The notes below the pieces were generated by a model. It saw only the letters and a list, made by a program, of their open reading frames with translations. It had not been told where the DNA came from and searched no databases. The position numbers and the translations under genes are program-made. This document shows positions 21,527-46,130 of a DNA stretch of 64,000 nt, one piece after another. Positions within the stretch are counted from its first letter, which is position 1; the number at the start of each line of letters is the position of its first letter. This DNA is from Candidatus Binatia bacterium. Its GTDB lineage: Bacteria > Desulfobacterota > Binatia > DP-6. The DNA lies in NCBI GenBank assembly GCA_041496545.1, contig JBGQET010000004.1:19293-83292 (forward strand). Direction: 5' to 3'.

Positions 21527-21943
21527 TCAGGAGCCGCTTTTCGGCGACTGTCCCGGCGTGCAGGGCATGCCCGGCGCCTTGATGACCATCTGGCGGTTGC
21601 CGAACTGGTCGAATCCCGTCTGGTCGGGCACCTTGCCCTTCGGACACTTGAGCTTGTAGCAGAACATCGGCGCGTCGAATGGCTGGCCGCCCGGGGCGCC
21701 GGGCGGGTTGCCCGCGGTGATGACCTTGTCGACGGGGCTGCAGATGAGCTTCGCCGGCACCTTGACCACGCAGCCGGATTCCTGCGGGAAGGTCCCGCCG
21801 CTCGGCGTCAGGTTGACGACGTACGCCGCCTTGGGCGCCGGGTCCTTCACCGTGTAGCACTTGAGGTGGTCGGCGGCGTGCGCGGGAGCCGCCAACAGCC
21901 CGGCGGCGAGGAGGGTGAGCAACGTCGTTGTCGTTCGCGTCAT
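21527..21943 (-). CDS. small secreted six-cysteine protein (paralog 1)
   Basis: Signal peptide MTRTTTTLLTLLAAGLLAAPAHA, then ADHLKCYTVKD...ESGCVVKVPAKLICSPV...FCYKLKCPKG...MPCTPG. High GC3. Tandem paralog immediately upstream. Confidence 0.6.
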   Translation of the reverse strand: MTRTTTTLLTLLAAGLLAAPAHAADHLKCYTVKDPAPKAAYVVNLTPSGGTFPQESGCVVKVPAKLICSPVDKVITAGNPPGAPGGQPFDAPMFCYKLKCPKGKVPDQTGFDQFGNRQMVIKAPGMPCTPGQSPKSGS

Positions 21944-21952
21944 GGCCGTCAA

Positions 21953-22389
21953 TCAGGTGTTCCCGGCCGGCACGTCGGCCGGGGCGCAGAGGATGGTCGG
22001 CTTCTTCACGGTCACCGTGCGGTCGCCGAACTGGTCCTTCATGCCGATCTGGAAGGTGTCCTGCTTCGGACACTTGATCTTGTAGCAGGCGTACTGGTGG
22101 ACGCGCGGCTGGCCCTGCGGCGCGCCGGGCGGGTTCCCACCCGTGACGATTTTGGAGATCGGATATCAGAGCAACGTGGCGGGCACCTTGACGGTGCAGC
22201 CCGTCTCGTTGGGGAACGCCGCGCTGAAGAGCGGAGTCAGCGTGGCGGTGTACGTCGCCTTCGCCGCGCTGTCCTTCCCCTTGTAGCACTTGAGGTGGTC
22301 GGTGAGGACGCCGGGTCCGGCCGTGGCCGTCCCGCCGAGCACGAGCCCGAGGCCGAGCGCGCAAGAAAGTTTGGAGCCTCGAGCGGCAT
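21953..22389 (-). pseudogene. paralog 2 of the six-cysteine secreted protein, interrupted by an in-frame TGA (22166-22168) at a conserved Cys position; pseudogene or candidate selenoprotein
   Basis: The segments ...DHLKCYKGKD...ETGCTVKVPATLL-TGA-YPISKIVTGGNPPGAPQGQP...CYKIKCPKQ...ILCAPA... align gap-free with paralog 1. The TGA falls exactly on Cys of LIC in paralog 1. No in-frame start codon lies upstream of the signal-like region; the nearest ATG (22387-22389) is in the -1 frame. Confidence 0.4.
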
Positions 22390-24309: not shown

Positions 24310-24984
24310 ATGCGGTGTCCGCGACGCCCTGACGTCCGCCCTCGCTCACCGATTGCCGACGCGGAGCGTCCCCACCGCCGGCGCCACCTGTTCCACGCCG
24401 CGGTCGTTCACGGCCACCGCGTCGACGGTGTACGTTCGTGCGCCGGGGCGCGGCCGGAGGGCGAGGGTGACACCCGACGTCACGCGCTCGCCGTAGTCGA
24501 CGCGAACGGCAAGCTCGTGGGAATGGTAAACGGGGCCTCCTCATCGCCTTGGCTCGTGGTCGGTGTCTTGGACTTCGGGATCACTCCTGTCGTACGACGG
24601 GTAGGAGATACCGTCGTGCAGTTCATCGTCGATGCTACTAGCTTGCAGGTGCCCGTGCAGGGGAATCCGATTCCCACTGACTTGGTGTTTCCAGCGCCGA
24701 ATTGTACCGGAACACCGTTGGTCCCCGTCGATCGATTCTCCCTCATCAGTGCCGTTTGGGATGAGGCTGATGTCTTTCGCTATGCGATTCTTCCGGGCAG
24801 TCCTCGGACTTGGGAGTCGATCGCGTTCTTCATCACAGATGGTTCACCGTGTTCAGGTACGCTGCTTCCGGGTGGACGATGCTGCGTGAACAAACCGGGC
24901 GGTCCCAAGAACCTTGCCGACACGGCGCTTTTTGACCTAAGCGCGATCGGCCTCGTTGTTCCGTTCCACGTCGAAGGGCCATAG
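24310..24984 (+). pseudogene. N-terminally degraded copy of the secreted-protein family represented by 36995..37750
   Basis: Residues from ALAVVDANGKLVGMV to the C-terminal GGRCCVNKPGG...LVVPFHVEGP align with 36995..37750 (VKDANGVLVGTVV...AGRCCTDGST...LVPPFHVETP). No signal peptide and no convincing start. The upstream GARPEGEGD looks like a decayed collagen-like triplet region. Lower GC. Confidence 0.4.
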
Positions 24985-25088
24985 TTTCGCAGGAAGCTGA
25001 CCGCCAAGAGTCTACGGTTGCAAACGCAAGCGCAGGGCGGATTCGCGGCTCGGCCGCGGTGAAGACCCCGAGCGACTCGGGATGCCCC

Positions 25089-25134
25089 CCGGACTCCCTC
25101 GCCGCCCTCGCCCCTCACGCCCCGGCTTGCGCGG
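25089..25134 (+). repeat. repeat family copy A (3' half only)
   Basis: CCGGACTCCCTCGCCGCCCTCGCCCCTCACGCCCCGGCTTGCGCGG matches the 3' half of the 99-nt repeat at 27612 and 36224. Confidence 0.7.
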
Positions 25135-25166
25135 CCTTGCGTCCTGGGAGTCAGCCTGCCGCGCAA

Positions 25167-25394
25167 CTACGACCGGAGATGCTGAAACGAAGCGCGGAAT
25201 AGAAGCCACAACACGAACACGAGGATCATGCCGACCCCGAGGACGGCGACGTTCCTTACCCACCGCCTGACCATCGCTTCGTAGAACTCGCGCCAGCCAA
25301 GCGTGAGAGGCGGCAGGAAGAGTGTCACGAGAGCCGCCCACGCGGCAGCGATCACGACCACCAGTGCGAGGAGCACGAACAGGCGGCTAGCCAT
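25167..25394 (-). CDS. small membrane protein (2 TM), hypothetical
   Basis: MASRLFVLLALVVVIAAAWAALVTLFLPP...AVLGVGMILVFVLWLLF. AGGGG-like RBS about 10 nt upstream. Lower-GC island context. Confidence 0.45.
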   Translation of the reverse strand: MASRLFVLLALVVVIAAAWAALVTLFLPPLTLGWREFYEAMVRRWVRNVAVLGVGMILVFVLWLLFRASFQHLRS

Positions 25395-25540
25395 TCCAGT
25401 CGCCCCTGCTTACACCTCTGCGGGCTCTACGGGCGAGGGCCCCGAGGGACCAACAAACGCTTGCCGGATGAGCCCGCCCCGGCGTAGACAGCCGCCACGG
25501 AGCGGGATCGCCCTGCTCCATCTGGGAAAGAGGAGACGTC

Positions 25541-26462
25541 ATGGTCAAACGCTCTTGGATTCGGAGTGCGTCGCTCGGAGCGGCCGTGATCGTCTGTGCG
25601 CTGCTTATCGGCTCCCCGCCTGTCCGTGCCGACGGCACTCTGCAGCACGTCAAGCACATCATCATCGTGATGCAGGAGAACCGCTCATTTGACAACTACT
25701 TTGGCGTGCTGCCGTTCGTGCCCAACACGCCGTACCACAGTGCCAAGGGCCGGAGACGCCGCGCGTGCGCGGCCAGCGACCACACCTGCGTCGACGGTCT
25801 GTCCTGCAAGATGAAACGGGGAACGCTCGTCTGCTCGAACGTCAATCGAAGCAACACCCATGGCGCCGTCAGATCCTTCCATGACCCGCGGTACTGTATG
25901 GGGCTGGACCTCACTCACGGCTGGGTAGCCAGCCATAGACAGGGCAACTTCTCGCACCCGAACAACATGCTCCGATCGAGCCCCAATCGGGGGTTTGTCA
26001 GAGTTGATGCGCAGGCCAACCCAGTAGATCAAGCAACCGATCACGACACGATGGGTTACTACACCGACGCCGATCTGCCCTTCTACTATGGTCTCGCCGA
26101 ATCGTTTGCGATCAGCGATCGCTACTTCGCCGCAGTCATCGGTCCGACCTTTCCGAACCGCGCGTACTTCCTGGCGGGGACCTCGTTCGGCCACCTGTCT
26201 ACGAGTGAGACTATCACCGGCGGAGGCTACAAGCCTCGGCTCTCATACGTCATTGCTGGCGCTCCTCGAGAAGCGCTTCTCGCTCCAGAGTCTCACTGCC
26301 CGGGATGCGAACGCCGACGATCTCGAGGACATGTTCGACTTCGACAACTCGCCGTCCGCGAATGTAGCGATCGGCACCGCACCACTGCCGATGCAGCCCG
26401 GGGATCCCAACTGCCCCTTCGGTGGATCGCCTGGCGGCGCCCTTGTGGATGGCGCCGGCTAG
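25541..26462 (+). pseudogene. phosphoesterase family (phospholipase C / AcpA-like) gene remnant with frameshift and internal deletion
   Basis: N-terminal signal peptide plus HVKHIIIVMQENRSFDNYFGVLP signature (frame 1 to about 26250), then a shift to another frame for the conserved C-terminal TARDANADDLEDMFDFDN motif (to stop 26462). Total about 307 aa versus 400-700 for intact family members. Confidence 0.55.
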
Positions 26463-26491
26463 AGCATCCCTCCCGCCTGCCGCGCGGCGGT

Positions 26492-27373
26492 TCAGCGCGC
26501 TCTGACCTCCCATGCGGGATCGACCATCGTGTCGCGGAGCTCCCACAGGAGGCGCCGGTTGTCGAGGTACCGCCACGGGTGGAAGTCGTACCGATGGTAG
26601 GCGGCGACGGCGCGCCAGCGACCCCGCAGCATCCCGCCGCGCCCGAAGACGAAACGGATGAGGTCCCGCCACGCGTGGAGGTCCTGCGCCGCGCCGGCGC
26701 TGGCGAGGATGCGGTGTGAGACCGATGGGAGCGCAAGGGCGAGGAGGACGACGGCGATCCACAGCCCGGCGATGCGGACGGCGTAGGTGTAGAACCCGTG
26801 GCCGCGTGCCGCGTGGAACGTGTCGAAGAGCACCGCCTTGTGCTCCACCTCCTCGTAACCGTGCCACCGGAACAGCCGGGCGATGCGAGGGTCGACGCCG
26901 TCGAGCAGCTCCGGCCGCGAGAGGATCGCGTTGCCGATCTCGCTGAGGAAGTGCTCGCCCGCCATGGCGACCGCGCTCCTGAGATCGCTCGAGGTCCAGT
27001 CGACGACCGCGAGCCATCGCAGCACGGAATCGGCAACGGGCTCGACCGGCACGCCCCACCGAATGAGCAACCGGTTGAACGCCGCGTGCATGCTGGCGTG
27101 GGCGGCCTCCTGGCGAAGGAAGGCATCGCCCTCGGCGCGCCGCTCCTCATCGGCGATGCGGGGCAGCAGGCGGCGGACGTCGTCGATGAAGAAGCCCTCC
27201 ACCACCGGCGCCATCACCGAGAGCGCCTCGAGGAACACCGTGGGCCCGATGCCGGCCGGGTGCCAGGCGCGCGGCACCTCGTCCTCGAGGCCATCGAAGT
27301 CGAAGCCGGGCCGCCGCGGCGTGACCGTGACGCCCAACCCGCAGGTGGAGGCGGGATTTACCCGACGATCCAT
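26492..27373 (-). CDS. predicted metal-dependent hydrolase (COG3687 / PF10118-like)
   Basis: WHPAGIGPTVFLEALSVMAPVVEGFFIDDV ... GYEEVEHKAVLFD pattern typical of this family; high GC3. Confidence 0.65.
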   Translation of the reverse strand: MDRRVNPASTCGLGVTVTPRRPGFDFDGLEDEVPRAWHPAGIGPTVFLEALSVMAPVVEGFFIDDVRRLLPRIADEERRAEGDAFLRQEAAHASMHAAFNRLLIRWGVPVEPVADSVLRWLAVVDWTSSDLRSAVAMAGEHFLSEIGNAILSRPELLDGVDPRIARLFRWHGYEEVEHKAVLFDTFHAARGHGFYTYAVRIAGLWIAVVLLALALPSVSHRILASAGAAQDLHAWRDLIRFVFGRGGMLRGRWRAVAAYHRYDFHPWRYLDNRRLLWELRDTMVDPAWEVRAR

Positions 27374-27472
27374 GAGTTCTCGCGTCCGGGGAGCATGGCG
27401 GCATTGTATCGGCGTCCAACAGCTCCTGCCCAGCTCGATAGATCGCCGCCCGGCGGACGTACAAACACGATT

Positions 27473-27611
27473 TCACACCCGCGGGCGAACGGCGATCGTA
27501 GGCACCGGCGGAAAGAGCAGCCCCGCCGGGATGGGGTACACCCGCCGCTGCGCCTCGACCACGAACCCCGCCGCCTCGAGCAGCGCGCGCATGCGCCGCC
27601 GCGTCGGCCAG
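27473..27611 (-). pseudogene. C-terminal fragment of a class I SAM-dependent methyltransferase fused to repeat-derived start
   Basis: The ORF 27473..27673 begins inside repeat copy B (MSDIEPFRELCGVVVPI). It continues into ...RRRMRALLEAAGFVVEAQRRVYPIPAGLLFP, resembling an MTase C-terminus, with no upstream catalytic part. Confidence 0.3.
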
Positions 27612-27710
27612 TAAAAGGGGCGGATAGGAACGACAACGCCGCAGAGTTCACGGAACGGCTCTATATCCGACATTCCGGACTCCTTCGCCGCCCTCGCCTC
27701 TCACGCCCCG
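27612..27710 (+). repeat. repeat family copy B (full length, 99 nt)
   Basis: GGATAGGAACGACAACGCCGCAGAGTTCACGGAACGGCTCTATATCCGACATTCCGGACTCCTTCGCCGCCCTCGCCTCTCACGCCCCGGCTTGCGTGG; 94/99 identical to copy D. Confidence 0.8.
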
Positions 27711-27716
27711 GCTTGC

Positions 27717-28142
27717 GTGGCATCGTTGATCGCGCTGCGCGGGCAAGGGGATGCCGAGCTGCGCGCGCTCGCTGCTCGCCAGCAGGATCCCGCCAGCCCG
27801 GACTTCGAGACACCACCTCGGAAGAGCGTCGGCATCATCAGCCTGTCGATCGACATCTGTCCGACCGGCCCGCTGGAGCGTCAAGCCACCGAGAGCGGCG
27901 GGTCGAGCGGCGGCGGCGTCACGCGCCAGCGGGCGCCACGCTACCAGAAGTAGCTGGTGCCCCGTCCGAAACGCCGTGAGATTCCCGACGTCGCGTTCCC
28001 CGCCGCACCCGTCTACCCGATCGGCCTCGCGGGAGGCGCCACGCTCGTCGGCGGCACCAGCGCGGCGGCGCCGGCGATGGCCGGCGCGGTCGCGCTGTTG
28101 ACGGCCGACGGTGCGGTCTGGCGAGTCACGATCGAAGCATGA
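27717..28142 (+). pseudogene. remnant of a subtilisin-like (S8) serine peptidase gene
   Basis: Two overlapping frames carry S8-like fragments, including the catalytic-Ser motif context GGTSAAAPAMAGAVALL (27957..28142). No intact N-terminal catalytic Asp/His regions are present. Confidence 0.35.
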
Positions 28143-28151
28143 CTCGGGGAG

Positions 28152-29168
28152 TCACGGATGGGCGCGAATCCAATCGATGAACTTCTGATACACGGGCTTC
28201 AACTGGACCGTCGAGAGATCGAGCAGGCCCCATCCGCACGACGGGTCGTCCTCGATGATGTTCCAGTAGAACGAGCGCTCGCAGAAGCCGGAGGAGCGAC
28301 ACGCCGCCAGTGTGTCGCGCGCCGCGCCACCGACGTCGGGCGGCGGCGACCAGGTGCAGCCCCTCCCGCCCTTGAAGTCGGAATAGCCGAACTCGGTGAC
28401 CCAGAAGCGCGTCACGCAGTACGGCAGGAGCTCGCTGCACCCGATCCATGACTCGGCATCGGAGAGTCGGGTCACGTTCTGTCCTGGCAGGTCGTAGAGG
28501 TGGATGTTGTAGAGGTCGATGGGGCGGCTGAGAAATCGCTGCCCGTTCTTCGCGTACGTGAGCCACGTGTCGAAGTCGGCCGAGTTGAAGAGTGACGCGG
28601 GAAGGATGCGCACGGTCGGGTCGATCGCACGGATGGCGTCGAACCCTGGATTCAACATGAGCTGCCGATATCGGGCGGGCGTCCCCCGGAAGCTCCAGCA
28701 CCCGTTCACCTCGGAGCCGAGCTCGTAGGAGTCCACCCGCCCCTTGAACGTCCGTGCAGCGGAGTCCGCGAGCTCAGCGAAGTACGCGGGATTGGCCGGC
28801 GGGAGCGCGGCCGGTTTCGGACTCGTGCCGCAGTCCCTGTCCGCAGCGCCGCGCGCCCACGTGGGCACCGGATGCTGAAGCGTCAGGGCGATGGAGAGGC
28901 CATGCGCCCGGGCAGTCGTGATCGCGCCGTCGATCAGCTCCCAGTGGAACTCGCCGCGGTTCGGCTCGATCACCTCCCAGGGGGCCGTCACGCGAACCCA
29001 GCCGAACCCGGAGGCGACGGCAAAATCGTACGCAGCCGGCGGCGTGGTCGGCGCGTAGTACGAAAGGTTCACGCCGTACGGAGAGGGGTTGACGCAGCCG
29101 AGCGCAGCGAAAGCAAGCGCGCCGAGCAGCAAGGTAGTCCCGAGACGGATGCTCGTCGTCGAAGCCAT
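28152..29168 (-). CDS. lipoprotein glycoside hydrolase (clan GH-A TIM barrel, GH5/GH39-like)
   Basis: Signal peptide plus lipobox MASTTSIRLGTTLLLGALAFAALGC. GWVRV near the N-terminus and the conserved nucleophile context FWVTEFGYSD. Confidence 0.7.
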   Translation of the reverse strand: MASTTSIRLGTTLLLGALAFAALGCVNPSPYGVNLSYYAPTTPPAAYDFAVASGFGWVRVTAPWEVIEPNRGEFHWELIDGAITTARAHGLSIALTLQHPVPTWARGAADRDCGTSPKPAALPPANPAYFAELADSAARTFKGRVDSYELGSEVNGCWSFRGTPARYRQLMLNPGFDAIRAIDPTVRILPASLFNSADFDTWLTYAKNGQRFLSRPIDLYNIHLYDLPGQNVTRLSDAESWIGCSELLPYCVTRFWVTEFGYSDFKGGRGCTWSPPPDVGGAARDTLAACRSSGFCERSFYWNIIEDDPSCGWGLLDLSTVQLKPVYQKFIDWIRAHP

Positions 29169-29320
29169 GTCTTTGCGTCGCACCAGCGCCGTATGGGATC
29201 AACGAAAATGGCGCGGCCGCATCGAACATTGCCATAGGTATCCGACGACTATGTAGCGTTTGCACCGTGCGGTCCCTCGCCTCGCACGACGTAGGGCAAC
29301 TCGTCGTCCTCAGCCCCGAC

Positions 29321-29362
29321 GGATAGGAACGACAACGCTGCAAAGTTCACGGAACGCCTCTC
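29321..29362 (+). repeat. repeat family copy C (5' half only)
   Basis: GGATAGGAACGACAACGCTGCAAAGTTCACGGAACGCCTCT matches the 5' half of copies B and D. Confidence 0.7.
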
Positions 29363-29412
29363 GAGCGGGGCGGGATTCTTGGCACGAGTGACGGGGGCCA
29401 GTATGCAGCGGC

Positions 29413-30582
29413 TTAGTACAGGAACATCGGCTTGCCGAGCATATCGCGCACTTTGGGGCGGTAGGTTTCGGCGTCGTAGAGGGCGGTCACGTCCACGCGC
29501 TTCTTGGTGGCGACGACCAGATCGAGGGGCACGGTGGTGTAAATGCCCTGCTGGAGGGCCACCATGCGCCCCGTGTGTCCGATGGCAACTTGGTCGAGGG
29601 CCAGGTTGCCGTAGGAGACGGCCACCATCCGGTCGAGGGAATCCGGCGCGCCGGAACGCATGATGTAGGCCAGTTGTTGATACATGATGTTGACGCCGGT
29701 GCGCTTCTTGATTTCCTCGGCGACGATGGCGCCCATGCCCCCCAGTTTTTTGTGACCGTAGGCGTCCGCCTCCCCCGTCTCGAAGACCGTCCCCCCTTTG
29801 GGATGCGCGCCTTCCGAAACGGTCATGATGGCGTAGTCCGAGGGGTTGCGCTCCCGGTCCTCCACCAGGAATTTCGCCAGGCGGTCAATGTCAAAGGGCA
29901 CCTCCGAGATGATGGCCCGGTCCACATCGGCCAGGTAAGCGGCAAACAGCGAGGTTTCGCCGGAGTTGCGACCAAACAGTTCGATCACGCCGATCCGCTC
30001 GTGCGAGCCGACCGAGGACCGGATCGCGGTGATGGCATCCACCGAGCGGGTGACAGCGGTGGAGAAGCCGATGCAGTAGTCGGTGCCAAAGACGTCGTTG
30101 TCCATCGTCTTGGGGATACCCACGACCCGGACACCCTCGTGATGGAGGCGGGCGGCATAACTCAACGTGTCGTCGCCGCCGATGGGGATGATTGCCTCCA
30201 GGCCCAGAAAGTCCAACACGCGCAGGACGTGGCGGGTGCAATCCACGGCACCGTCGGGCGTGGCGACCCGGTCCTCGGCACGGACGCATGCGGGCACCTC
30301 GTCGGGTTTGACCTTGGCCGGATTGATGCGCGAGGTGTGCAGGATGGTGCCCCCGGTCCGGTCAATGGTACGCACGGAGTCGTGCGTGAGGGGCATGGTC
30401 CACTCCTCCCGCGTTTCCGGGTCGTCCGGGTTGATCTGCACCACGCTCAACCAGCCTCGCCGCAGGCCAACCACCTCAATGTCGCCGTCCTCGGCACGGC
30501 TCGCCACGGCTTTGATCGCGACGTTCAGACCAGGAACATCTCCGCCCCCGGTCAGGATACCAATGCGCCGCTTTACGGTCAT
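29413..30582 (-). CDS. pfkA: 6-phosphofructokinase, pyrophosphate-dependent signature (GGDD ... PKTMDND)
   Basis: [25 protein letters not shown] (Asp in place of the second Gly of the ATP-PFK GGDGS motif), [10 protein letters not shown] (Lys typical of PPi-PFK). RBS AGAGGG 8 nt upstream of ATG 30582. Codon usage and GC (about 60%) are atypical for the window. Confidence 0.85.
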
Positions 30583-30713
30583 AGGAACTACCCTCTTTCG
30601 CATTTGTGGTACAATCGCAATCTGCACCGAAAAGGGAAGCAACGCGCGTGGCCTTCGAGCCTGACTGGCGACTCGTTCGAGATCGCGTGAATACCAACGG
30701 CTGGAGGTGCGGG

Positions 30714-31067
30714 GTGAAGGTGTACGCCTTCGACGTAGATCACACGTTGGAGTTGTCGGCCGGGCCCGTTCGCTTCGCCGACGTGGTCAAGCTCCGCGAG
30801 GACGGCCACATCCTTGGCATCTGCGGCAACTGGGGCGCCGTCACGCGCTTCGTCGGGGGCTGGCACAACCTCTTCTCGTTCATCGGGCCGATCGGATCGA
30901 CCAAGGCCGACATGCTTGTGCAGCTGGTGACGTACATCCCGGCCGAGGAGCACATCATGGTCGGCAACGACCCCAGCGTCTTCGGGCAGTCCGCAGACTC
31001 GGATGCCGCCGCGCAGGCGGGATGGCGTTTCATTCGCGAGGAGGCCTTTGCCGGGGGCGCCCGGTGA
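30714..31067 (+). CDS. small HAD-superfamily hydrolase-like protein
   Basis: GTG 30714 is preceded by GGAGGTG. N-terminus [13 protein letters not shown] carries HAD motif I DxDxT. Only about 117 aa, so it may be a truncated HAD. Confidence 0.45.
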
Positions 31068-31333
31068 TCGTGTGCGGGGAGCTTCCGGCTGACGCTGACG
31101 AAGCTGGTCTGGCATCGTAGCCCCGCGGAGGCGGTCACTCGACTATTTCGGGGTGTTTGTCCACCGTCTGGGTTGGTGGTCGCGGCGTTGAAGGGTGCCG
31201 ACTGGACTCTCTCGCCAAGGCCGAGGTCCGCCTCGGAACGCCTCGCGGTCGGGATCGTCTACACGCGCTTCGGGGATGCGGTCGCGTGGCTCGTTGTGGT
31301 GCTGGGCGGCAGTGCTGGTCCTGGGAACGCGCC

Positions 31334-31768
31334 TCAGCCACCGCTCGTGATGTAATTCTCGAGCTGCGAGATGTGGAATTCCTTCTCCGAGATTACCGCC
31401 TTCACCACGTCTCCGATCGAGAGGATGCCCGCCAGCTTGCCTTCTTCGAGCACGGGAAGGTGCCGGCAGCGCTTGGCGGTCATGAGCGCCATGCATTCCT
31501 CGATGTTCTGCTCCGGTCGGACGAACACGACGCGAGAGGTCATGACCTCGTGGACCGGCGTGCCCTTCGACGTCTTGCCCTTGAGGGTCACTTGGCGGGC
31601 GTAATCACGCTCCGAGAAAATCCCGACCGGCCGCTCCCCCTCGAGTACGAGCACCGCGCCGATGTTTTTCTCGGCCATCAGCTTGAGTGCGTCGTACACG
31701 GTGGTCTCGGGCCTGACTGAGGAGATGTCGCTCCCCTTCGTTTTGAGTACGTCTCGCACAGTCTTCAT
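31334..31768 (-). CDS. CBS domain pair protein
   Basis: Two CBS repeats (AVLVLEGERPVGIFSERD; HLPVLEEGKLAGILSIGD). RBS AGGAAGGGG upstream of ATG 31768. Confidence 0.75.
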   Translation of the reverse strand: MKTVRDVLKTKGSDISSVRPETTVYDALKLMAEKNIGAVLVLEGERPVGIFSERDYARQVTLKGKTSKGTPVHEVMTSRVVFVRPEQNIEECMALMTAKRCRHLPVLEEGKLAGILSIGDVVKAVISEKEFHISQLENYITSGG

Positions 31769-32055
31769 AGCCCCTTCCTTTCGCGAACTGGCGCCCGTTC
31801 TTTGCGGTGCGTTGGTCGGTGATGACCTCGGCGGCCTGTTCCGTCATGCCGGGGGCGGCACTAGCCGCGTCCATCGTCGGATCCGGGCGTGCACCGCCTC
31901 CACGGTTGCGCAGAGGTGGGCGACCAGGCGGTCGAACATGGCCGCACGTCTTCACCACCGCTCGCTCCGCCGTCAACCCTGCGGCGACGGGGGTGGGCGG
32001 GGCGAGAATCTCTCGCGATTCCAGCGGGGACGGGCGAAGTAGCCAGTATGGGCAG

Positions 32056-32409
32056 TTACTTCACGCTCTGGACGACGATGCCGTTGAGGCCGTCCTGAGT
32101 GACCTTGTTGCCCTCGACGGTGATTGTGTCGGCAACCTTCGACAGCACATCGGCGTAGGCCTTCGGGTTGTCATGGTCCCCGAGGAGTAGGAACAGGTGG
32201 TTGTCCTCGGTGAGGAGACCCACCGGGGCCCCGTTCTTCGCACACGTCTGCGCGCACTTCCGGTGGCCCGAGCCGTGACCCGTCTCCGGATGCGCCAGGT
32301 AGCAGGTGAGGTCCACGACCTCTCCCTTCACCGCCACCGCGTCTGCGGCACACGCCACGCTGCCCGTGGCCAGCACGCCGAGCATCCCGAGCATCAGCAG
32401 CGTTTTCAT
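32056..32409 (-). CDS. secreted hypothetical protein
   Basis: Signal peptide MKTLLMLGMLGVLATGSVACAAD from ATG 32409. The listed longer ORF start lacks support. Confidence 0.5.
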   Translation of the reverse strand: MKTLLMLGMLGVLATGSVACAADAVAVKGEVVDLTCYLAHPETGHGSGHRKCAQTCAKNGAPVGLLTEDNHLFLLLGDHDNPKAYADVLSKVADTITVEGNKVTQDGLNGIVVQSVK

Positions 32410-32579
32410 GCGTTTCCCATACCGGCCATCCGTGAAACAGTCAAAAGGGGGATCACCTCTCGGTGGGTCGACGAAGGCAACTAACGGACGGCGACGTCGC
32501 AGGAGGAGGCGGCGAGGTCCGGGTCGGCCACCAGGATCGAAGACTCGCAAACGCTGAGGGCGGGCACGTGAGTGCAGCG

Positions 32580-33128
32580 TCAGGACGGCGGAACGACTGA
32601 TTCGGCGAGACCCGTGGCAAAGGCGTCCATCATGCTAAGGAACGCCGACCGTTGGCGCTCGGGCACTCGATGATAGAGCCGGATGAGATGCCCGAACGCC
32701 GCATCGCGTGCGACCTCCACCCGCTCGACGTCGATGCTCGCCGCGCCATGACGTCCGCGGACCAAGTGAGGCGGCGGCGAGAAATGCTCCATGAACTCGA
32801 GAAACCGTCGAACCTCCTCCGCGAGCGAGTCTGGATCAAACGTGCGGAGCGCGGCCGCCAAGGCGCTCCCAACCTTCACGAGAACCAGGAACGGGGTGGC
32901 GAGACCTCGTCCTGATTCGAGCCGGCTGATGGCTCCCTGGCTCACGCCGGAGCGTTGCGCGAGCTCTTGCTGGGAAAGTCCGAGGAACTCGCGCAAGCCG
33001 CGCGCATGGCGACCGACCCGTCCCATCCACTGGCGCCACTCGGATTCTTCGGATGGCGTGCCTGCGTTGGGTTGGAGATCCCGGGCGGACGGTTCCATTG
33101 TCGCCTCCAAATACTGCTTGCGAGGCAT
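32580..33128 (-). CDS. XRE-family helix-turn-helix transcriptional regulator
   Basis: HTH_XRE motif LREFLGLSQQELAQRSGVSQGAISRLESG; the C-terminal domain is unknown. Confidence 0.7.
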   Translation of the reverse strand: MPRKQYLEATMEPSARDLQPNAGTPSEESEWRQWMGRVGRHARGLREFLGLSQQELAQRSGVSQGAISRLESGRGLATPFLVLVKVGSALAAALRTFDPDSLAEEVRRFLEFMEHFSPPPHLVRGRHGAASIDVERVEVARDAAFGHLIRLYHRVPERQRSAFLSMMDAFATGLAESVVPPS

Positions 33129-33333
33129 AAGGCCGGCGGGCCGTGACCGTCAAGACACAGCGTGCCGATGGTGCGACGTGTCCGACCCGGGGGGGCGTCG
33201 CTGGGCTAGACGAGTCCCTGAAGCGGCCTCAAGGGTCGCGGGAGCCGCCACGATACACAGCCGGGGGCAGCCGACCAGGGCGCTCGATTCGGCTTGCTCA
33301 GCGTGTGCGTCGCGCTGCGGCTCACCGCCGTCA

Positions 33334-34203
33334 CTACCCCGCCCATCGGCTCGTGGTCTCCGGCAACGGCCCCACCCGCCACCCGATCCGACATCCCCGC
33401 GCCACCAGCTCCACCCGGATCTCCCGCACCACCCCGCGGTACCGAAACCACGGAATCGTCGTCCACAGATGATGCACCAGGTGCTGGTTCTGCCCCAGCA
33501 GCGCCGCGTTCAGCACCGCCCCGCCGTAGATCCGCGTGTCGTAGTACCGCGCCGTCGTGTCGTACGGGTAGTGCGGCAGGAAGTCGAAGGCGAAGCCAAG
33601 GAAGAGCACCGCGAGCAGCGCCGGCCCGAGCCACAGCACGCACAGCGCCTGCCCGAGGCCCGCGGCGATCGCCGCCACGATCAGCGCGCCGAGCGTTGCG
33701 TCGTATACGATCGACTCCCACCGATCGCGTGGCGACCGCCAGAGCCGCCGCCCGTAGAAGTGCCACCGGTATGCCACCACGATGCCGACGCTCCAGAGCG
33801 GCAGCAGCCAGCGCGGCCGCCGTGCGACGACGTGGTCCGGGTCGCGCGCTGGGTCGTTCGTGTGCGAGTGGTGCTCGTAGTGCACGGCGCGGAAGAGCGG
33901 CAGCGAGATCGTCAGCAGCGCGCCCGCCACGCGGCCGATCCACTCGTTGGCGACGTCGCGACGGTGCGCGATGCCGTGCATGGACTCGTGCAGCGGCGTG
34001 AAGACGACGTAGAGCGCCACCGCGTGGAGTGCCACGATCGCCCCCGTGGGGAGCCGTCCGCCCGCGTACGCCCACGTCCCCACCGTGAGCGTCGCCAGTG
34101 ACGCCCCGAACAGCCAGAGCGTCGGGTTGACGAGCGTGCCGGCCGGTGCGCCGATCCACTCCCGCCGGACCGGGATGCGCGGGGATGCCGCGGCGGTGCT
34201 CAT
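33334..34203 (-). CDS. membrane fatty acid desaturase / hydroxylase family protein (three His boxes)
   Basis: ATG 34203. Histidine boxes HESMH, HYEHHSH and HLVHH separated by TM helices. The 958-aa listed ORF is an upstream-extended artefact. Confidence 0.75.
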   Translation of the reverse strand: MSTAAASPRIPVRREWIGAPAGTLVNPTLWLFGASLATLTVGTWAYAGGRLPTGAIVALHAVALYVVFTPLHESMHGIAHRRDVANEWIGRVAGALLTISLPLFRAVHYEHHSHTNDPARDPDHVVARRPRWLLPLWSVGIVVAYRWHFYGRRLWRSPRDRWESIVYDATLGALIVAAIAAGLGQALCVLWLGPALLAVLFLGFAFDFLPHYPYDTTARYYDTRIYGGAVLNAALLGQNQHLVHHLWTTIPWFRYRGVVREIRVELVARGCRIGWRVGPLPETTSRWAG

Positions 34204-34301
34204 GGCGTGGCCGTCCCTACTGCGCGCCGAGGGCCGGCTCAAGCGCACCTGGCCCCAGGGCCACCGCCGGTAGTCTGGATAGTCCTGCGAAGTGGGGAGC
34301 G

Positions 34302-36086
34302 TCAGGCGGCTTCGCCGGCGCGGCGGAGGTCGGGCTCGTCGGCCCCCGAGTCGAGCGGCACCATGACGTCGAAGGCAGAGCCGCGCCCCGGGGCGCTGTC
34401 GAGCCGGATCGATCCGCCGAGCTGCTGCACGAAGCGCCGGACGATGTAGAGCCCGAGGCCGGTGCCGCCGTAGCGGCGGGCGTCCGAGCCATCGGCCTGG
34501 CGGAACATCTCGAAGATCGTCTCGTGGTTCTCCGGCCGGATCCCGATCCCGGTGTCGGAGACGCGGATGCAGAGCCGACCGTCGGCCGCGCGAGCGGCGG
34601 CTCGGACCTCCCCCTGCTCCGTGAACTTGAGCGCGTTGCTCACCAGGTTGCGGACGATGACGGTGAGCTTCCGCGGGTCGCTGCGAAGCGCGACCGGAGG
34701 CCGCGCCTCGTCCCAGACGAGCTCGACGCCGGGACGCCGCGGCATCCGGTGGCACGACGTCCCGAGCTCCGCCCAGAGCTCGGTGAGCCCGACGCGCTCG
34801 AGCTGCACCTCGTCGCGGCCCGCCTCCATCTTGCCGATCTCGAGCGTCGTCTCGATCAGCGTGAGCAGCTCGCGCCCCGCGCCTTCGACGCGGCGGACGA
34901 ACTCGGCCCGCTGCTCCGGGGCGAGCGCCGGGTCCTGCGCCATCTCGGAGAAGCCGATGATGACGTTGAGCGGCGTCCGCAGCTCGTGCGAGACGGTGGA
35001 CACGAACTGCGACTTCGCCTGGTTCGCCGAGCGGAGGTCCGCCACCAGCTGCGCGGTGCGAATGGCGAGTGCCGCTTGGTCGGCGATGAACCGCGCGAGC
35101 GCGCGGTCCGCGGCCGTGAACGGTCCGTCGTGCTTCCGCGTGAAGTTGGCGATGCCGACCACGTCGGCGCCATGGACGAGCGCGACGTAGAGCACGCGGC
35201 GGCCGCCCAGCTCCTCCACCACCTTCCCGATCGGGCTCGCCGGATCGTCGTCGGGCAGGACGAGGATTCCCTCCGAGACGATGCGAGCCGCGAGCGGGTA
35301 GTCCGCGGGCGCCTCGCAGCCGACGCTCCAGCGCGCGGTCGGGGAGACGCTGCCCACGACCGCGGCCACCCGGTAGACGCGGCGGGACGCGTCGTGGAGC
35401 GCGAGCACGCCCGAGTCGGCCGCCATGAGCCGGAGGCCGTGCTCCAGCACCTTCGCGATCACCCATTCGCCCTCGACCCGCTCCGCGAGCCGCCGCGCGA
35501 GCGACACGAGCTGCTCCTGCTGCCAGCCGTGCTCGAAGGAGACCATGCGGTAGCGGTCGATGAGCCGCGCGCCCACGATGGCGACGGGGACGGCGCTCAG
35601 GACGAGGGCCAGGGCGCTGAAACTGATGAACTCGGGCGCGATGACGAGCGTCACCATGTAGCCGCAGACCGCCAGGAGGCTGCTCACCGCCTGCGGGACA
35701 GCCCCCCAGGGGAGGAGCAACGTCGTCCCCATCATGAGCGCCACGAAGCTCGCCGGCGCGGCCGCCCGGTCGCCGACTCCTCGGCCGTAGTCGAGCGTCA
35801 TGGCGAGGGTCAACAGGAACACGTACGCGAGGGCGAGCGACCTCGCCCGACCGCGCCCGAGCGCGGTGTTGGTGAGCGCCCAGGTCGCGAGACCGAGGGC
35901 GGTACCGGCGGCGATGAGCTCGACCGGCGGCGCGACACCCGGCGGGCGCACCGCGTCGACGACGCTCAGGATGCCGAGCCCGCCCAAGCTGAGCGCCACG
36001 CACCAACGCAGGCGCCCGAGGACGAGCGCGTCGCGCTCCGCCCGGAAGATGGGCACCCACGCGCCAACCGCCCCACGCCGAGGCAT
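34302..36086 (-). CDS. membrane sensor histidine kinase with GAF domain
   Basis: N-terminal TM helices, GAF-like region, HisKA (SHELRTPLN), HATPase_c (NALKF, DTGIGI, GTGLGLYI). Start uncertain (36086 or 36164). Confidence 0.75.
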   Translation of the reverse strand: MPRRGAVGAWVPIFRAERDALVLGRLRWCVALSLGGLGILSVVDAVRPPGVAPPVELIAAGTALGLATWALTNTALGRGRARSLALAYVFLLTLAMTLDYGRGVGDRAAAPASFVALMMGTTLLLPWGAVPQAVSSLLAVCGYMVTLVIAPEFISFSALALVLSAVPVAIVGARLIDRYRMVSFEHGWQQEQLVSLARRLAERVEGEWVIAKVLEHGLRLMAADSGVLALHDASRRVYRVAAVVGSVSPTARWSVGCEAPADYPLAARIVSEGILVLPDDDPASPIGKVVEELGGRRVLYVALVHGADVVGIANFTRKHDGPFTAADRALARFIADQAALAIRTAQLVADLRSANQAKSQFVSTVSHELRTPLNVIIGFSEMAQDPALAPEQRAEFVRRVEGAGRELLTLIETTLEIGKMEAGRDEVQLERVGLTELWAELGTSCHRMPRRPGVELVWDEARPPVALRSDPRKLTVIVRNLVSNALKFTEQGEVRAAARAADGRLCIRVSDTGIGIRPENHETIFEMFRQADGSDARRYGGTGLGLYIVRRFVQQLGGSIRLDSAPGRGSAFDVMVPLDSGADEPDLRRAGEAA

Positions 36087-36223
36087 TTCCAGCCAACAGC
36101 GGAGCAACGGCCGTGCCACGGCCGCTACCCCGCCCCGGCGTCGCTGGGATGCAGGCGGACACACACGCCCGGTGGCGCATGTGCCACGCGCGGCACGCTG
36201 GATCTGTCAACGGCGCGGTAAGC

Positions 36224-36322
36224 GGATAGGAACGACAACGCTGCAGAGTTCACGGAACGCCTCTATATCCGACATTCCGGACTCCCTCGCCGCCCTCGCC
36301 CCTCACGCCCCGGCTTGCGCGG
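36224..36322 (+). repeat. repeat family copy D (full length, 99 nt)
   Basis: GGATAGGAACGACAACGCTGCAGAGTTCACGGAACGCCTCTATATCCGACATTCCGGACTCCCTCGCCGCCCTCGCCCCTCACGCCCCGGCTTGCGCGG. Confidence 0.8.
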
Positions 36323-36578
36323 CCGATCGAGGCGAAGTCCGAGACCGCTGCCACGCCGATGATCCGGGGCTTTGCGCCCGATGGTCATGAGATTGGCGGT
36401 ACACTCTGCCCCGGCGCGTGGGTGCCGATCGGCAAGTAGTCGCGCCGCTCACGGGTCGTCGTCGAACAGCTCGCGCGTCGAGACGCAGGGTCGCGTCGTC
36501 ACGCCAGGCGACGACGGCCGGCCGCGGGTCGGGTGTGGGCGGAGACGCCGCGCGCGCAAGGTACGCGAGCGATCGGAA

Positions 36579-36628
36579 TGCCGGGAGGGAGGCTCGAACT
36601 CCCACGGGCTTTCGGCCAGCGGATTTTA
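36579..36628 (-). repeat. duplicated 3' half of tRNA-Leu (pseudo-tRNA / att-like direct repeat)
   Basis: 46/50 nt identical to 38600..38649, from the discriminator through T-arm and variable arm to the anticodon loop. Identity stops exactly at the tRNA 3' end and in the anticodon loop. Confidence 0.7.
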
Positions 36629-36994
36629 GAGCACGACGACGCGGCTCAGGGGTCCACCAGCGCTGCATGGCCGGCTTCCCAAGCACTGGCGACACGTAAT
36701 CGCTGGGCTCACACAGTCCGACTGATTGCAGGTAGAGCCACTGACAATCTGCGCCGTGCAGGTATTCGGAGGGCCCTTTTTGCACCATTTCCTCGGCAAA
36801 CAGTCGTTGTCGACGATGCAGGGGGTTGATGTCTGAGGGGTCTCGGCACTGGGGACCTCCGTCCGGAAGCGGCGATTGCCTTGTGTAGCACTTCGTGGAA
36901 CCGACCATCAACGATCGTTGGGGGCGTTCCGGCTTGACGCCCAGGCGAAGGCCGTCGTAGCCGTCACCTGTCGTCCTACGGCAGGAGGTCAGCC

Positions 36995-37750
36995 ATGCGT
37001 TCACTCGTCAGCCTGATGATCGTCGCCCTTGGGCTTCCTACGCAGGCGGCAGTACTGTGCGTTAGCCGCATGGGCGCGGTCCATGTCCGAGATGCGTGTC
37101 GCTCGCGTGAGACGCCAGCCAACCCGGCCACGCTCGGGCTTCAGGGGCCGCCAGGACCGCCGGGCCCCGGGCTTACGGTGAAGGACGCCAATGGTGTGCT
37201 CGTCGGGACGGTCGTGGAGGAGGCGCACGCCGGAGACGTCGATGTCCGCACCTCCGCTGTCGGCGACATACTTGGCGTCTCGCAGATCACTCCAACGCCT
37301 TTCATCCACCTTATGCAGGTGGCGCGCGTCGTGAACGGCACGGCGCTTCGTTTCACGGTGAGCCCGGCGGGATTCGTGAACACTGGACCCGAGTTGGGCT
37401 ACATCGTCGCGTTCGACGGCCCGTCCTGCACCGGGCAGGCGTACTTTGACGTCGGGTCACCTGGATCGTCGCTTACCATCCCGAGGTTTCTGGAGTCGGC
37501 GTGGATCAACGGCACGACGCTTTACTACCGTCCCCATGGGCCGGCCTCAACGGCGGCGATGCAGCGGTCGATCCTGACATTCCCGGTAGACGCTTCCCAG
37601 TCGTGCCCATTCGGCACAACGGATTTCATCGCCCCCGCGGGCCGGTGCTGTACGGATGGATCAACCTACGCCATCGAGGGCGTGTCGCTAACGGTGCTCG
37701 ACATCGCGTCGCTCGGCCTCGTTCCGCCGTTTCACGTCGAGACGCCGTAG
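36995..37750 (+). CDS. secreted protein with short collagen-like GPPGPPGPG triplet region (family also at 24310..24984)
   Basis: Strong RBS GGAGGTCAGCC before ATG 36995. Signal peptide MRSLVSLMIVALGLPTQAAVL and conserved C-terminal AGRCCTDGSTYAIEG...LVPPFHVETP. Lower GC. Confidence 0.65.
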   Translation: MRSLVSLMIVALGLPTQAAVLCVSRMGAVHVRDACRSRETPANPATLGLQGPPGPPGPGLTVKDANGVLVGTVVEEAHAGDVDVRTSAVGDILGVSQITPTPFIHLMQVARVVNGTALRFTVSPAGFVNTGPELGYIVAFDGPSCTGQAYFDVGSPGSSLTIPRFLESAWINGTTLYYRPHGPASTAAMQRSILTFPVDASQSCPFGTTDFIAPAGRCCTDGSTYAIEGVSLTVLDIASLGLVPPFHVETP

Positions 37751-38374: not shown

Positions 38375-38599
38375 GGAGAACCTCCCCGTCTGGGGCTACT
38401 AGGTCGCCCGGCAACTTACCACGACTGCTCGGCACGACCACGAGCGTCGTGGTTGCCGAGCCATGGACGACGCGTGCGCGTTTCTCCGGTCCACTGTGGG
38501 CACAGGCCCAATTCGTTTGGGGACACTTTGGGGACAATCGAGCCGTGCGGAGGGGGAGGGAAGGGCGAGCGGACTGGCTAACTAGTTGAACTCGCTGAG

Positions 38600-38683
38600 T
38601 GCCGGGAGGGAGGATCGAACTCCCACGGGCTTTCACCCAGCGGATTTTAAGTCCGCCGCGTCTGCCAGTTCCGCCATCCCGGC
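38600..38683 (-). tRNA. tRNA-Leu (anticodon TAA)
   Basis: GCCGGGATGGCGGAACTGGCAGACGCGGCGGACTTAAAATCCGCTGGGTGAAAGCCCGTGGGAGTTCGATCCTCCCTCCCGGCA on the minus strand. Long variable arm typical of Leu. Confidence 0.85.
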
Positions 38684-39201: not shown

Positions 39202-39448
39202 AGCCGTCGTCGGAGCGCCGTTTCGCGGCGGCATGTGGGTTGCTTGAGGGGTGTGCTCCGCGTCGCGCTCACCGGGCTCCTCGTCCTCTGGGTGGTGTCG
39301 CTCGCGCGCCTCGTGACGGCGCGGCGGGCGCCCGCCGTGATCCGCGTGCGGGCGATTCAGCGACCCCGCGCGGCGTAGCGCGTCCCGGCTCCGGTCGCGG
39401 TTGTCCCCCCCGTCCGGGTCCACTATCTTGGCCTGTCTTGCAGCCCCT

Positions 39449-42051: not shown

Positions 42052-43824
42052 ATGCTCCTGAAGATCCTCCGGCGCCTCGTGCCCTACCGCGGGCTCTTCG
42101 CCTGGGCGGTGGCGCAGGTGCTGCTGATCGGCGTGCTCGAGCTGGCGAAGCCCTGGCCGCTCAAGGTCGTCGTCGACAACGTGCTCGGCGGGCGGCCGCT
42201 CGGCTGGCCGGTCGTCGGCGGGCTCGCCCCGCGGCCGCTCCTGGCCGTCGCCTGCCTGGTGCTGGTCGGCGTCTACGCGCTGCTCGGGCTCCTCAGCGTG
42301 ACCAGCAACTACGCCACCATCAGCGTCGGCCAGCGCATGGTGAACGACTTCCGGAGCGAGCTGTACGCGCACCTCCAGCGGCTCTCGCTCGCCTTCCACA
42401 GCCGCCGCTCGGTCGGCGACCTCCTCTATCGCCTCACCGCCGACACCTTCGCCATCCAGACGCTCACCATGAACGGCGTCTTCCCGCTGCTCACCTCGGC
42501 GGTGCTGCTCGGCGGGATGGTCGTCGTGATGCTCCGCATGGACTGGGTGCTGACGCTCGTCGCGCTCGGCGTCGTGCCGGCGCTCTTCCTCTCGATCGCC
42601 GCCATGAGCCGCCGCATCACCGCGCTCGCCACCGACGCGCGCGTCAAGGAGAGCGCGCTCTGGGCCGTCGCGCAGCGGACGATCGGCGCGATCCGCGTCA
42701 TCCAGGCATTCACCACCGAGGGGGAGGAGCACCGCCGCTTCGTCGGTACCAGCCGCGCGAGCCTCGACGCGAACCTTCGCCTCTACACCTTCCAGACCGT
42801 CTATGGGTCGGGCGTGAACGTGCTCATCGCGGCCGGCACCGCGGGCGTCCTCTGGTTCGGCGCGGTGCACGTGCTGGAGGGCGGGCTCACCGTCGGGCAG
42901 GTGCTCGTCTTCACCACGTACCTCGCTTCGCTCTACGCGCCCATCAACAGCCTGACCCAGACCTACGGCCTGATCCAGGGGGCGCGCACCGGCGCCGAGC
43001 GCGTGTTCGAGATCCTCGACACCGCGCCCGATCTCGTCGACGGGACGCGCGAGCTCGGTCGCGACGAGGTCCACGGCGCCGTCACCTTCGAGGACGTCCG
43101 CTTCGGCTACGACGCCTCGCGCCTCGTCTTGCAGGGCGTCGACTTCCACGCCCGCGCCGGCGAGGTCGTCGCCGTCGTCGGCGCGACGGGCGCCGGCAAG
43201 ACGACGCTCGTGAGCCTGATCCCTCGCTTCTACGACCCGGTCGCCGGCCGCGTGCTGCTCGACGGCATCGACGTGCGCGAGTTCCGGCTGCACGCGCTCC
43301 GCCGGCAGGTGGCGATGGTACTCCAGCCGGCGCTCGTCTTCCCGACCAGCGTCCGCGACAACATCGCCTACGGCCGTCCCGACGCGACGCTCGCCCAGGT
43401 CCGCGAGGCCGCGCGGCTGGCGCAGCTCACCGACTTCCTCGAGCGCCTGCCGGCGGGGCTCGACACGATGGTGGGGGAGGGGGGCGCGACGCTCTCGGCC
43501 GGCGAGCAGCTCCGCATCACGATCGCGCGCGCCATCCTCCGCGACGCGCCGCTGCTCATCCTCGACGAGCCCACGTCCGCGCTCGACGCGACCACCGAGG
43601 CCCTCGTCATGCAGGGCCTCGAGCGCTTGATGGCCGGCCGCACGACGTTCGTCATCGCGCACCGGCTCTCCACGGTCCGCCGCGCCGACGTCATCCTCGT
43701 CATCGACGACGGCCGCATCGTCGAGCAGGGACCCTTCCACGAGCTGGTGGCGCGCGGCGGACACTTCGCGCGCCTCCACCGGACGCAGTTCGGCGAGGAG
43801 CCGGAGCGTGCCGCGTCGTCCTGA
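42052..43824 (+). CDS. ABC exporter, fused permease-ATPase (MsbA/lipid or polysaccharide exporter-like)
   Basis: Six-TM ABC_membrane domain, then Walker A GATGAGKTT, ABC signature LSAGEQLRI and Walker B LLILDEPTSALD. GAGG RBS before ATG 42052. Confidence 0.85.
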   Translation: MLLKILRRLVPYRGLFAWAVAQVLLIGVLELAKPWPLKVVVDNVLGGRPLGWPVVGGLAPRPLLAVACLVLVGVYALLGLLSVTSNYATISVGQRMVNDFRSELYAHLQRLSLAFHSRRSVGDLLYRLTADTFAIQTLTMNGVFPLLTSAVLLGGMVVVMLRMDWVLTLVALGVVPALFLSIAAMSRRITALATDARVKESALWAVAQRTIGAIRVIQAFTTEGEEHRRFVGTSRASLDANLRLYTFQTVYGSGVNVLIAAGTAGVLWFGAVHVLEGGLTVGQVLVFTTYLASLYAPINSLTQTYGLIQGARTGAERVFEILDTAPDLVDGTRELGRDEVHGAVTFEDVRFGYDASRLVLQGVDFHARAGEVVAVVGATGAGKTTLVSLIPRFYDPVAGRVLLDGIDVREFRLHALRRQVAMVLQPALVFPTSVRDNIAYGRPDATLAQVREAARLAQLTDFLERLPAGLDTMVGEGGATLSAGEQLRITIARAILRDAPLLILDEPTSALDATTEALVMQGLERLMAGRTTFVIAHRLSTVRRADVILVIDDGRIVEQGPFHELVARGGHFARLHRTQFGEEPERAASS

Positions 43825-46128: not shown

Positions 46129-46130
46129 GA

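Follow-up and report, generated by a model that had tools for sequence, protein, structure and literature searches.

Within 11 kb of the 64-kb stretch of Candidatus Binatia DNA analyzed here (contig JBGQET010000004.1, below called the window) a 102-nt repeat occurs four times among accessory genes, which raises the question of what it is: a mobile element, a site at which genes are joined, an RNA, or a relic of something larger. The answer tentatively favoured here is a low-copy, lineage-private palindromic repeat of the REP/REPIN, ERIC or Bru-RS kind, residing in accessory DNA and either being or marking a recombination breakpoint.

Repeat search, nhmmer, blastn and a covariance model all agreed on four copies in the window and no others, and the repetition greatly exceeds what chance would give. 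Two of them are full-length, copy A at 27620-27721 (97 of the 102 positions identical to copy B) and copy B at 36222-36323 (125 bits with the covariance model), with nhmmer E-values of 5e-35 and 7e-34. The other two retain a single arm of the unit: copy C, at 29320-29361, is identical to B in 41 of 42 positions, and copy D, at 25089-25136, in all 48. All four share one orientation. The first-pass annotation had described the repeat on the plus strand; the G-rich strand that forms the stem-loop is the minus strand, to which all copies are assigned here. Copy C, the 5' half of the unit on the plus strand, is in these terms the 3' arm of the minus-strand stem, and copy D, the plus-strand 3' half, is its 5' arm. 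The annotated set of two full and two half copies, co-oriented and bracketing accessory genes, was recovered by each of these approaches. Also the annotated identity of 94/99 between the full copies is correct when copy A is taken at 27622-27720, but the interval given for it, 27612..27710, was shifted by 10 nt and matches at only 32 of the 99 positions.

Both ends of the unit are sharp. The left edge, GCGGATAGG..., is common to copies A, B, C and E (the last being a fifth copy on another contig, described below), and the right edge, ...GCTTGCGCGGCC, is common to A, B and D. Beyond these edges the sequences of the different copies are unrelated, both in the nhmmer and blastn searches and in the flank comparison. 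Two sharp ends set in unrelated flanks show that the unit is discrete and that a process specific for its ends or for a site has acted on it; judged from the sequence, the plain duplication of a promoter or terminator would not result in such ends. Of the half copies, C ends after ...GGAACGCCTCT and D starts at CCGGACTCC..., so both are without the stem tip, i.e. the 12 nt ATATCCGACATT at the centre of the unit.

The same layout was found at an identity of at least 99.9% in independent assemblies, including those of five JGI samples, NCBI assembly GCA_041485145.1 and Logan unitigs, and it is therefore not an assembly artefact. Two Logan unitigs independent of each other (L007 and L008) both stop within copy C, at window position 29349; at its length, the repeat can interrupt the k-mer assembly of this genome.

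By sequence comparison, the copies sit at joints between gene-sized modules and gene fragments. The phosphofructokinase (PFK) gene at 29413-30582 on the minus strand belongs to a module (29414-30651) that is 93.6% identical to two contigs from other samples (L020 and L021), the homology ending at the stop codon on one side and 20-70 nt upstream of the start codon on the other. Copy C starts 51 nt past the PFK stop codon, i.e. past the end of the module. The gene of a 75-aa membrane protein (25167-25394, minus strand; a 90% cluster with 26 members) belongs to a second module (25147-25441), 89% identical to five other contigs (L025-L029), in which the homology ends right after the stop codon, 11 nt before copy D; the copy itself is placed 30 nt after that stop codon. 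Since homology ends at gene boundaries, the region is a mosaic in which the modules have the size of single genes and adjoin other sequences in each strain.

Copy A lies between two gene fragments. Its left edge is abutted by a truncated open reading frame (ORF) tail of 48 codons (27473-27619, minus strand), with a GC content at third codon positions (GC3) of 0.95, native to this genome; we take this tail to be similar to a methyltransferase C-terminus, for which Pfam gives no match. To the right of A is a subtilase fragment with the Ser motif GTSAAAPAMAG (27957-28142, plus strand; PF00082, E 3e-4). The N-terminal half of a phosphoesterase (PF04185) is located at 25541-26719 on the plus strand, and these three fragments, which surround copies A and D, bear out the intergenic, fragment-adjoining position that had been claimed for the repeat. 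Copy B lies 58-136 nt upstream of the gene of a GAF histidine kinase and 255 nt from a tRNA-Leu fragment.

Nearly all genes in 26.5-36.1 kb are on the minus strand, and thus the G-rich, stem-forming strand of every copy is their sense strand. In the Pfam scan of the window ORFs these minus-strand genes included the GAF histidine kinase (34302-36086/36164), and besides PFK the block contains a fatty-acid desaturase (33334-34203), an HTH protein (32580-33098), a CBS protein (31334-31768), a 338-aa protein (28152-29168) and a metal-dependent hydrolase (26492-27373), all likewise on the minus strand. Domains of recombinases, integrases or transposases were absent from the window ORFs scanned with Pfam. 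The DNA readable for the searches of both copies and enzymes comprised 64 kb of the genome plus approximately 15 kb of the second locus.

All four copies are contained in a block at 23.4-38.6 kb with a GC content of 67%, compared with 72% on both sides, in agreement with the lower-GC setting noted before. The right edge of this variable block is a tRNA-Leu(taa) gene (38599-38683, minus strand), identified by ARAGORN and Rfam. The 3' 50 nt of the tRNA gene are duplicated at 36579-36630 on the same strand (47/50 identical, E 2e-16), and the gene and its duplicate bracket a 2-kb islet in the manner of an att-type (attachment-site) direct repeat. Two small secreted proteins are encoded in the islet, but no integrase. 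To the right of the tRNA, gene order is conserved in four related loci, at approximately 82% nucleotide identity, while to the left every genome has different DNA; the tRNA-Leu is kept in two of the four, with different DNA adjoining it. The glycosyltransferase gene (GT2) at 39401-42043 has homologues at 86%, 77% and 62% identity labelled Candidatus Binatia bacterium. As the relatives differ to the left of the tRNA, the repeat lies in a lineage-wide hot spot of variation, and these comparisons suggest that in this lineage the tRNA-Leu gene has repeatedly served as a hot spot of integration. One relative (L019, 82% identity) has a tRNA-Leu and fragment pair (2910-2993 and 6597-6681) around different genes. 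A tRNA-derived att site was rejected as an origin of the unit: blastn-short of the tRNA-Leu against the window matched 36579-36628 only and nothing in the repeat, and ARAGORN found no tRNA-like structure in the repeat.

The neighbourhood includes also other repeated sequences. Following the GT2 and ABC-transporter genes, three tandem paralogous genes of approximately 387 aa occupy 43808-47290 (period about 1160 nt, 62-70% nucleotide identity); relatives (L016, L018, L019) have two to four copies, and the paralogues show only a weak Glyco_trans_1_2 match. Near the left and right margins of the repeat-bearing block are genes of a 224-aa protein (24310-24984, plus strand) and a 251-aa protein (36995-37750, plus strand), distant paralogues of each other (27% identity over approximately 190 aa, E 1e-7), neither of which has a Pfam domain. 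Adjacent similar segments about 429 nt apart at 21527-22302 (21553-21610/21979-22036 and 21803-21873/22232-22302, 72-80% identity) suggest, by their sequence, that two small paralogous genes lie in tandem where the variable region begins on the left.

The repeat is not restricted to the window, and the first-pass annotation thus withstands the test that it had itself proposed. A query with six-frame peptides revealed a fifth, full-length copy E at positions 3300-3402 of another contig from the same samples (L010). It is approximately 93% identical to B across the first 89 nt, has a diverged tail, and lies 42 nt past a stop codon. The contig (L010/L022-24) has a GC content of 65-68% and is present also in a second NCBI metagenome-assembled genome (MAG), GCA_041495325.1 (JBGQCN010000020.1). 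The locus of copy E is again accessory DNA. Approximately 2-11 kb from the copy (in L022 and L024) are a frameshifted IS3-family transposase, an acyltransferase and a SpvB/TcdB/RHS-type toxin gene of more than 2300 aa. The IS3 element of this contig, the nearest insertion sequence (IS), has no sequence in common with the repeat unit.

Rfam gave no match to the repeat at 36150-36400 even at E<=10, and three tRNAs were the only matches in the whole window at the gathering threshold. The BLAST searches of plasmids and phages produced only chance matches to the C-rich tail, so that the annotated lack of any known RNA or element family was upheld. For the exact-pattern scans, the 5' half and the central inverted repeat supplied four patterns, and the 3' half none. 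With these patterns no match was found in 185,579 species-representative genomes or in viral contigs, and a JGI metagenome set yielded a single chance match inside a coding gene; the source samples were outside all these collections, which makes the absence of the repeat there weaker than it appears. No copy was present beside the tRNA-Leu or the GT2 gene in the four related Binatia loci, nor did any adjoin the homologues of PFK or the 75-aa gene in other contigs. So far the repeat seems to be confined to a single lineage of uncultured Candidatus Binatia.

On the minus strand the unit is composed, in order, of a 17-nt mini-hairpin, a G-rich arm GUGAGGGGCGAGGGCGGCGAGGGAGUCCGGAAUG, a 9-nt loop and a U/C-rich arm. 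The arms are predicted to form an imperfect stem-loop of approximately 76 nt with about 28 pairs, seven of them G·U. The short inverted repeat CGGAACG...CATTCCG reported earlier is present, together with the C-rich tail, and it is the top of this longer stem. The stem-loop is predicted in all three full copies: the minus-strand RNA of copy B folds with -47.2 kcal/mol (z -2.06 against shuffles of its own sequence), that of A with -39.8 kcal/mol (z -0.48, likewise against its own shuffles), and that of E with a z of -1.97. The plus strand of the full copies gave no significant fold.

The half copies behaved differently from each other. In copy D the conserved arm pairs, according to both the fold and the covariance model, with an unrelated replacement arm in its flank (25056-25088, minus strand). 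The resulting stem-loop at 25056-25135 has -44.7 kcal/mol, 73% of the ensemble and a z of -2.25, and the covariance model accepts the copy with its flank (26.7 bits, E 0.003). The arm of D joined to random genomic 33-mers folds equally well in 6.5% of trials (p 0.065, marginal), which weakens the case for this stem-loop. Copy C formed no stem-loop with its flank. The stem-loop, once considered strong evidence, was downgraded, as its z is about -2 against own shuffles and unremarkable against the genomic null, with no compensatory pairs. It is taken here as a property of the sequence and not as a sign of selection. The G-rich arm of copy B has also a canonical G-quadruplex motif, GGGG-N5-GGGG-N3-GGG-N6-GGG (window 36240-36300, minus strand), which is broken in A and incomplete in E and is thus probably incidental.

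The minus strand of the unit includes a GGGAG-N6-ATG followed by 18 open codons, but a protein-coding unit was rejected. The copies differ in the ATG-led frame by non-synonymous changes (A to P, S to G), and no frame has a protein homologue: among 5.8 billion protein clusters the sole match of the six-frame peptides was P0002, a spurious ORF lying over copy E. For these reasons the unit is treated as non-coding. The GC3 of the 18 codons is approximately 0.6, foreign to this genome. In copy A the frame runs without interruption into the 48-codon tail, giving a called ORF of 66 aa (P0001, 27473-27673), whose product has no homologue and looks like the tail of a truncated protein. In three of the four copies (A, B and C) the ATG and the next gene share the same phase, which is not significant (about 0.1).

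The reading tentatively preferred here treats the unit as a non-coding, non-autonomous interspersed repeat of 102 nt, built of the 17-nt mini-hairpin followed by the imperfect stem-loop of approximately 76 nt, and placed, as it seems, just downstream of genes and at joints of modules and fragments in strain-specific accessory DNA. Such a unit would have been spread, or carried along, by recombination or transposition using its ends. The tip of the stem would be a preferred breakpoint, leading to the two one-arm copies. On a transcript it might act at most as a 3' stem-loop, i.e. a terminator or stabilizer for the upstream gene. If this is true, the unit is one more lineage-specific small palindromic repeat, of use as a strain marker and as an explanation of assembly breaks in Binatia MAGs.

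Several observations weigh against this reading. The unit has no terminal inverted repeats, its ends GCGGATAGG... and ...GCGCGGCC not being complementary, and the flanks of copies A-E share no 2-10-nt duplication that would represent a target-site duplication. Neither a conserved target tetranucleotide nor a conserved base adjoining either end was found; the bases running up to the copies, ...AAGGGG, ...CGGTAA, ...GCCCCGA and ...GATCCT, all differ, whichever strand is considered. The scanned window ORFs included no Y1/HUH or DDE transposase. The known copies number only five, of which four fall inside 11 kb, and none was found in the other 53 kb of the window or in approximately 110 kb of related and neighbouring loci, while a freely dispersing repeat should be more scattered. 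There was no empty site or presence/absence polymorphism, as the nine contigs of the window locus and all those of the E locus are colinear. Also the fold is less telling than it first seems: with DNA folding parameters it is not significant (z 0.15, -1.39 and -1.05 for the full copies), the arm of copy B joined to random genomic DNA folds as well (p 0.59; the genome has 71% GC), and a comparison of the three full copies reveals compensatory changes in none of the 33 predicted pairs.

The main rival is a dedicated site-specific (att-like) recombination site with a crossover near its centre, a possibility that we consider rather unlikely on balance. Circular modules with a copy of the site would enter a resident copy or a related site and build the island stepwise through an unlinked recombinase, which would explain the clustering, the shared orientation, the positions at junctions and the order of the arms. 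Four co-oriented copies bracket accessory genes beside the tRNA-Leu hot spot, and the positions of copies match the ends of gene-sized modules, whose neighbours differ from strain to strain. On the plus strand the right arm (D, 25089) is followed after 4.2 kb by the left arm (C, 29361), an order that is the one expected of an integrated circle carrying a complete site. The segment is flanked by a 15-nt imperfect direct repeat, with the left copy CGAGCGACTCGGGAT (25069-25083, plus strand) just outside D and the right copy CGAGCGGGGCGGGAT (29362-29376, plus strand) abutting C. The two are identical in 12 of the 15 positions, and their shared pattern CGAGCGnnnCGGGAT occurs at these two sites only in the window. 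Core sites of tyrosine recombinases have an AT-rich centre between inverted arms, and by inspection of the sequence the centre of the unit is its only AT-rich stretch (TCTATAT), located between the inverted arms.

Other findings do not fit an att-like site. Conservative recombination should keep a common core, but the central 12 nt are missing from C and D alike. Between the 15-nt repeats there are three mismatches, and the probability of such a pair among random 30 x 30 nt pairs, approximately 0.008, comes from a post hoc test. The D-C and A-B pairs interleave and cannot therefore both be att pairs, the stretches between copies hold one to seven genes plus pseudogenes, and no excision or empty-site variant was seen in nine independent contigs. 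No integrase or recombinase was among the window ORFs scanned. The flanks of C and D were considered also as the diverged halves of a second subfamily, and this was rejected, their alignment not exceeding that of random genomic segments (p 0.21 and 0.81). The earlier suggestion of a recombination site gains some indirect support from the module junctions and from the right-arm to left-arm order within the 15-nt direct repeat, but there is no recombinase among the scanned ORFs and no conserved core in the half copies.

Still further from the preferred reading, and in our opinion improbable, the 102-nt unit could be the recombination site of an undescribed module-accretion system in Binatia, integron-like but unrelated to attC. 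The stem-loop site would travel on circular modules, each made up of one to a few genes and ending directly behind a stop codon; a recombinase with its gene elsewhere would insert these modules, the crossover taking place at the stem tip. Full copies would then represent module-module joints and one-arm copies module-chromosome joints, the latter being suggested by the segment 25089-29361 with its right-arm to left-arm order and flanking CGAGCGnnnCGGGAT. If true, a defined shuffling site would offer a new handle on accessory-gene exchange in an uncultured phylum: between strains the PFK and 75-aa modules are still 89-94% identical while the flanking DNA is replaced right at the stop codon, and joints of this type are where the repeat is found.

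Equally doubtful is a cis-acting RNA element or small RNA duplicated with genes rather than mobile. It could be a stem-loop in a 3' untranslated or intergenic region, serving as a terminator, insulator or mRNA stabilizer, or a leader that sequesters the Shine-Dalgarno sequence and AUG; a GGGAG-N6-AUG does lie within the stem. The stem-loop exists only on the gene-sense strand, with its seven G·U pairs, D keeps a well-defined stem-loop through a different 3' arm, and D and E are found 30 and 42 nt after stop codons. Against this, copy A folds poorly (z -0.48) and C cannot form the stem, covariation is absent, and the fold is no better than the null of genomic composition. No promoter-like site or U-tract terminator was found in or beside the copies; the single terminator-like match within A has a stem of 5 bp, and shuffled sequences yield as many matches in total. 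Identical sharp ends in unrelated flanks are not expected from duplicated regulatory regions, and the Rfam check, negative up to E<=10, stands on the same side. The small RNA gene family proposed in the first-pass annotation is consequently not proven.

Least probable is a relic of something larger, either the 5' untranslated region and first 18 codons of a gene that integrating elements targeted and replaced, or the end of an IS or integrative element that a series of insertions and deletions has left in place: the minus-strand GGGAG-N6-ATG with its open codons, the frame continuing in copy A into a tail of native GC3, and the phasing in A, B and C are in its favour, but the codons carry non-synonymous changes and a foreign GC3, the 66-aa product is without homologue and resembles a truncated tail, the phasing is not significant, one element end would give one sharp edge where both are sharp here, and the nearest IS shares no sequence with the unit.

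Among known systems, the classical miniature inverted-repeat transposable element (MITE) is similar in being a small, non-coding, discrete unit at several loci. As a derivative of a DDE element it was rejected, since terminal inverted repeats, target-site duplications and a parent IS are all missing, and with it the MITE-like element suggested at first. An IS200/IS605-derived (PATE-like) element was rejected as well, as the conserved tetra- or pentanucleotide target expected of it was not present and the flanking bases differ for each copy.

The att repeats of tRNA-linked islands are likewise co-oriented direct repeats bracketing acquired gene blocks beside a tRNA gene, and the tRNA-Leu 3' fragment at 36579-36630 is a true att-type example in the same region. 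The 102-nt unit differs from these in having no similarity to any tRNA, no integrase among the ORFs scanned, and a copy at an unrelated locus.

Integron attC sites are 57-141 nt long, have RYYYAAC / GTTRRRY core sites and recombine at the R' box, and in chromosomal integrons the attC copies within an array can be about 95% alike. The unit has in common with attC sites and CALIN arrays its length of approximately 100 nt, its co-orientation with genes, the bracketing of accessory genes and folding on one strand. However, attC was rejected: the base of the stem is AGGGGCGA / TCGTTCCT, without an AAC/GTT pair on either strand of A, B and E, the unit is not significant as a DNA hairpin, and no tyrosine recombinase or intI was present among the window ORFs scanned with Pfam. 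Furthermore, pairing in the unit requires G·U, i.e. RNA and not DNA, the segments hold one to seven genes, and the half copies break at the centre and not at a position like that of the R' box.

The ERIC/IRU, Bru-RS1/2 and RIME-type families are imperfect palindromes of 100-130 nt in transcribed intergenic spacers, occurring in either orientation throughout the chromosome. Truncated and variant copies are common among them, and some are hot spots for insertion and rearrangement. The unit is similar to these in its length of about 100 nt and its imperfect palindrome, but it has no sequence similarity to them, a single orientation, and a distribution limited to variable DNA.

REPs have a conserved GTAG/CTAC motif, and neither GTAG nor CTAC is present in the 102-nt unit. 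REPINs consist of two short inverted REP palindromes and usually occur in tens to hundreds of copies, flanking a RAYT gene, and single-arm remnants of such hairpin repeats are known as REP singlets (PMC3116915, PMC3337134), which gives a precedent for the one-arm copies C and D. The unit resembles them as a short, non-coding, extragenic, putative hairpin without terminal inverted repeats or target duplications, with one-arm remnants beside complete hairpins and with its mobilizing enzyme, if any, unlinked. It differs in that its arms have no internal palindrome, five copies are known and these are clustered in accessory DNA, and no Y1 transposase was among the ORFs scanned. Although the unit cannot be filed with REP/REPIN, ERIC or Bru-RS, it resembles them in size, non-coding nature, intergenic transcribed position and single-arm remnants. 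The sequence family is new to every library searched; the small interspersed palindromic repeat is, as a kind, well known.

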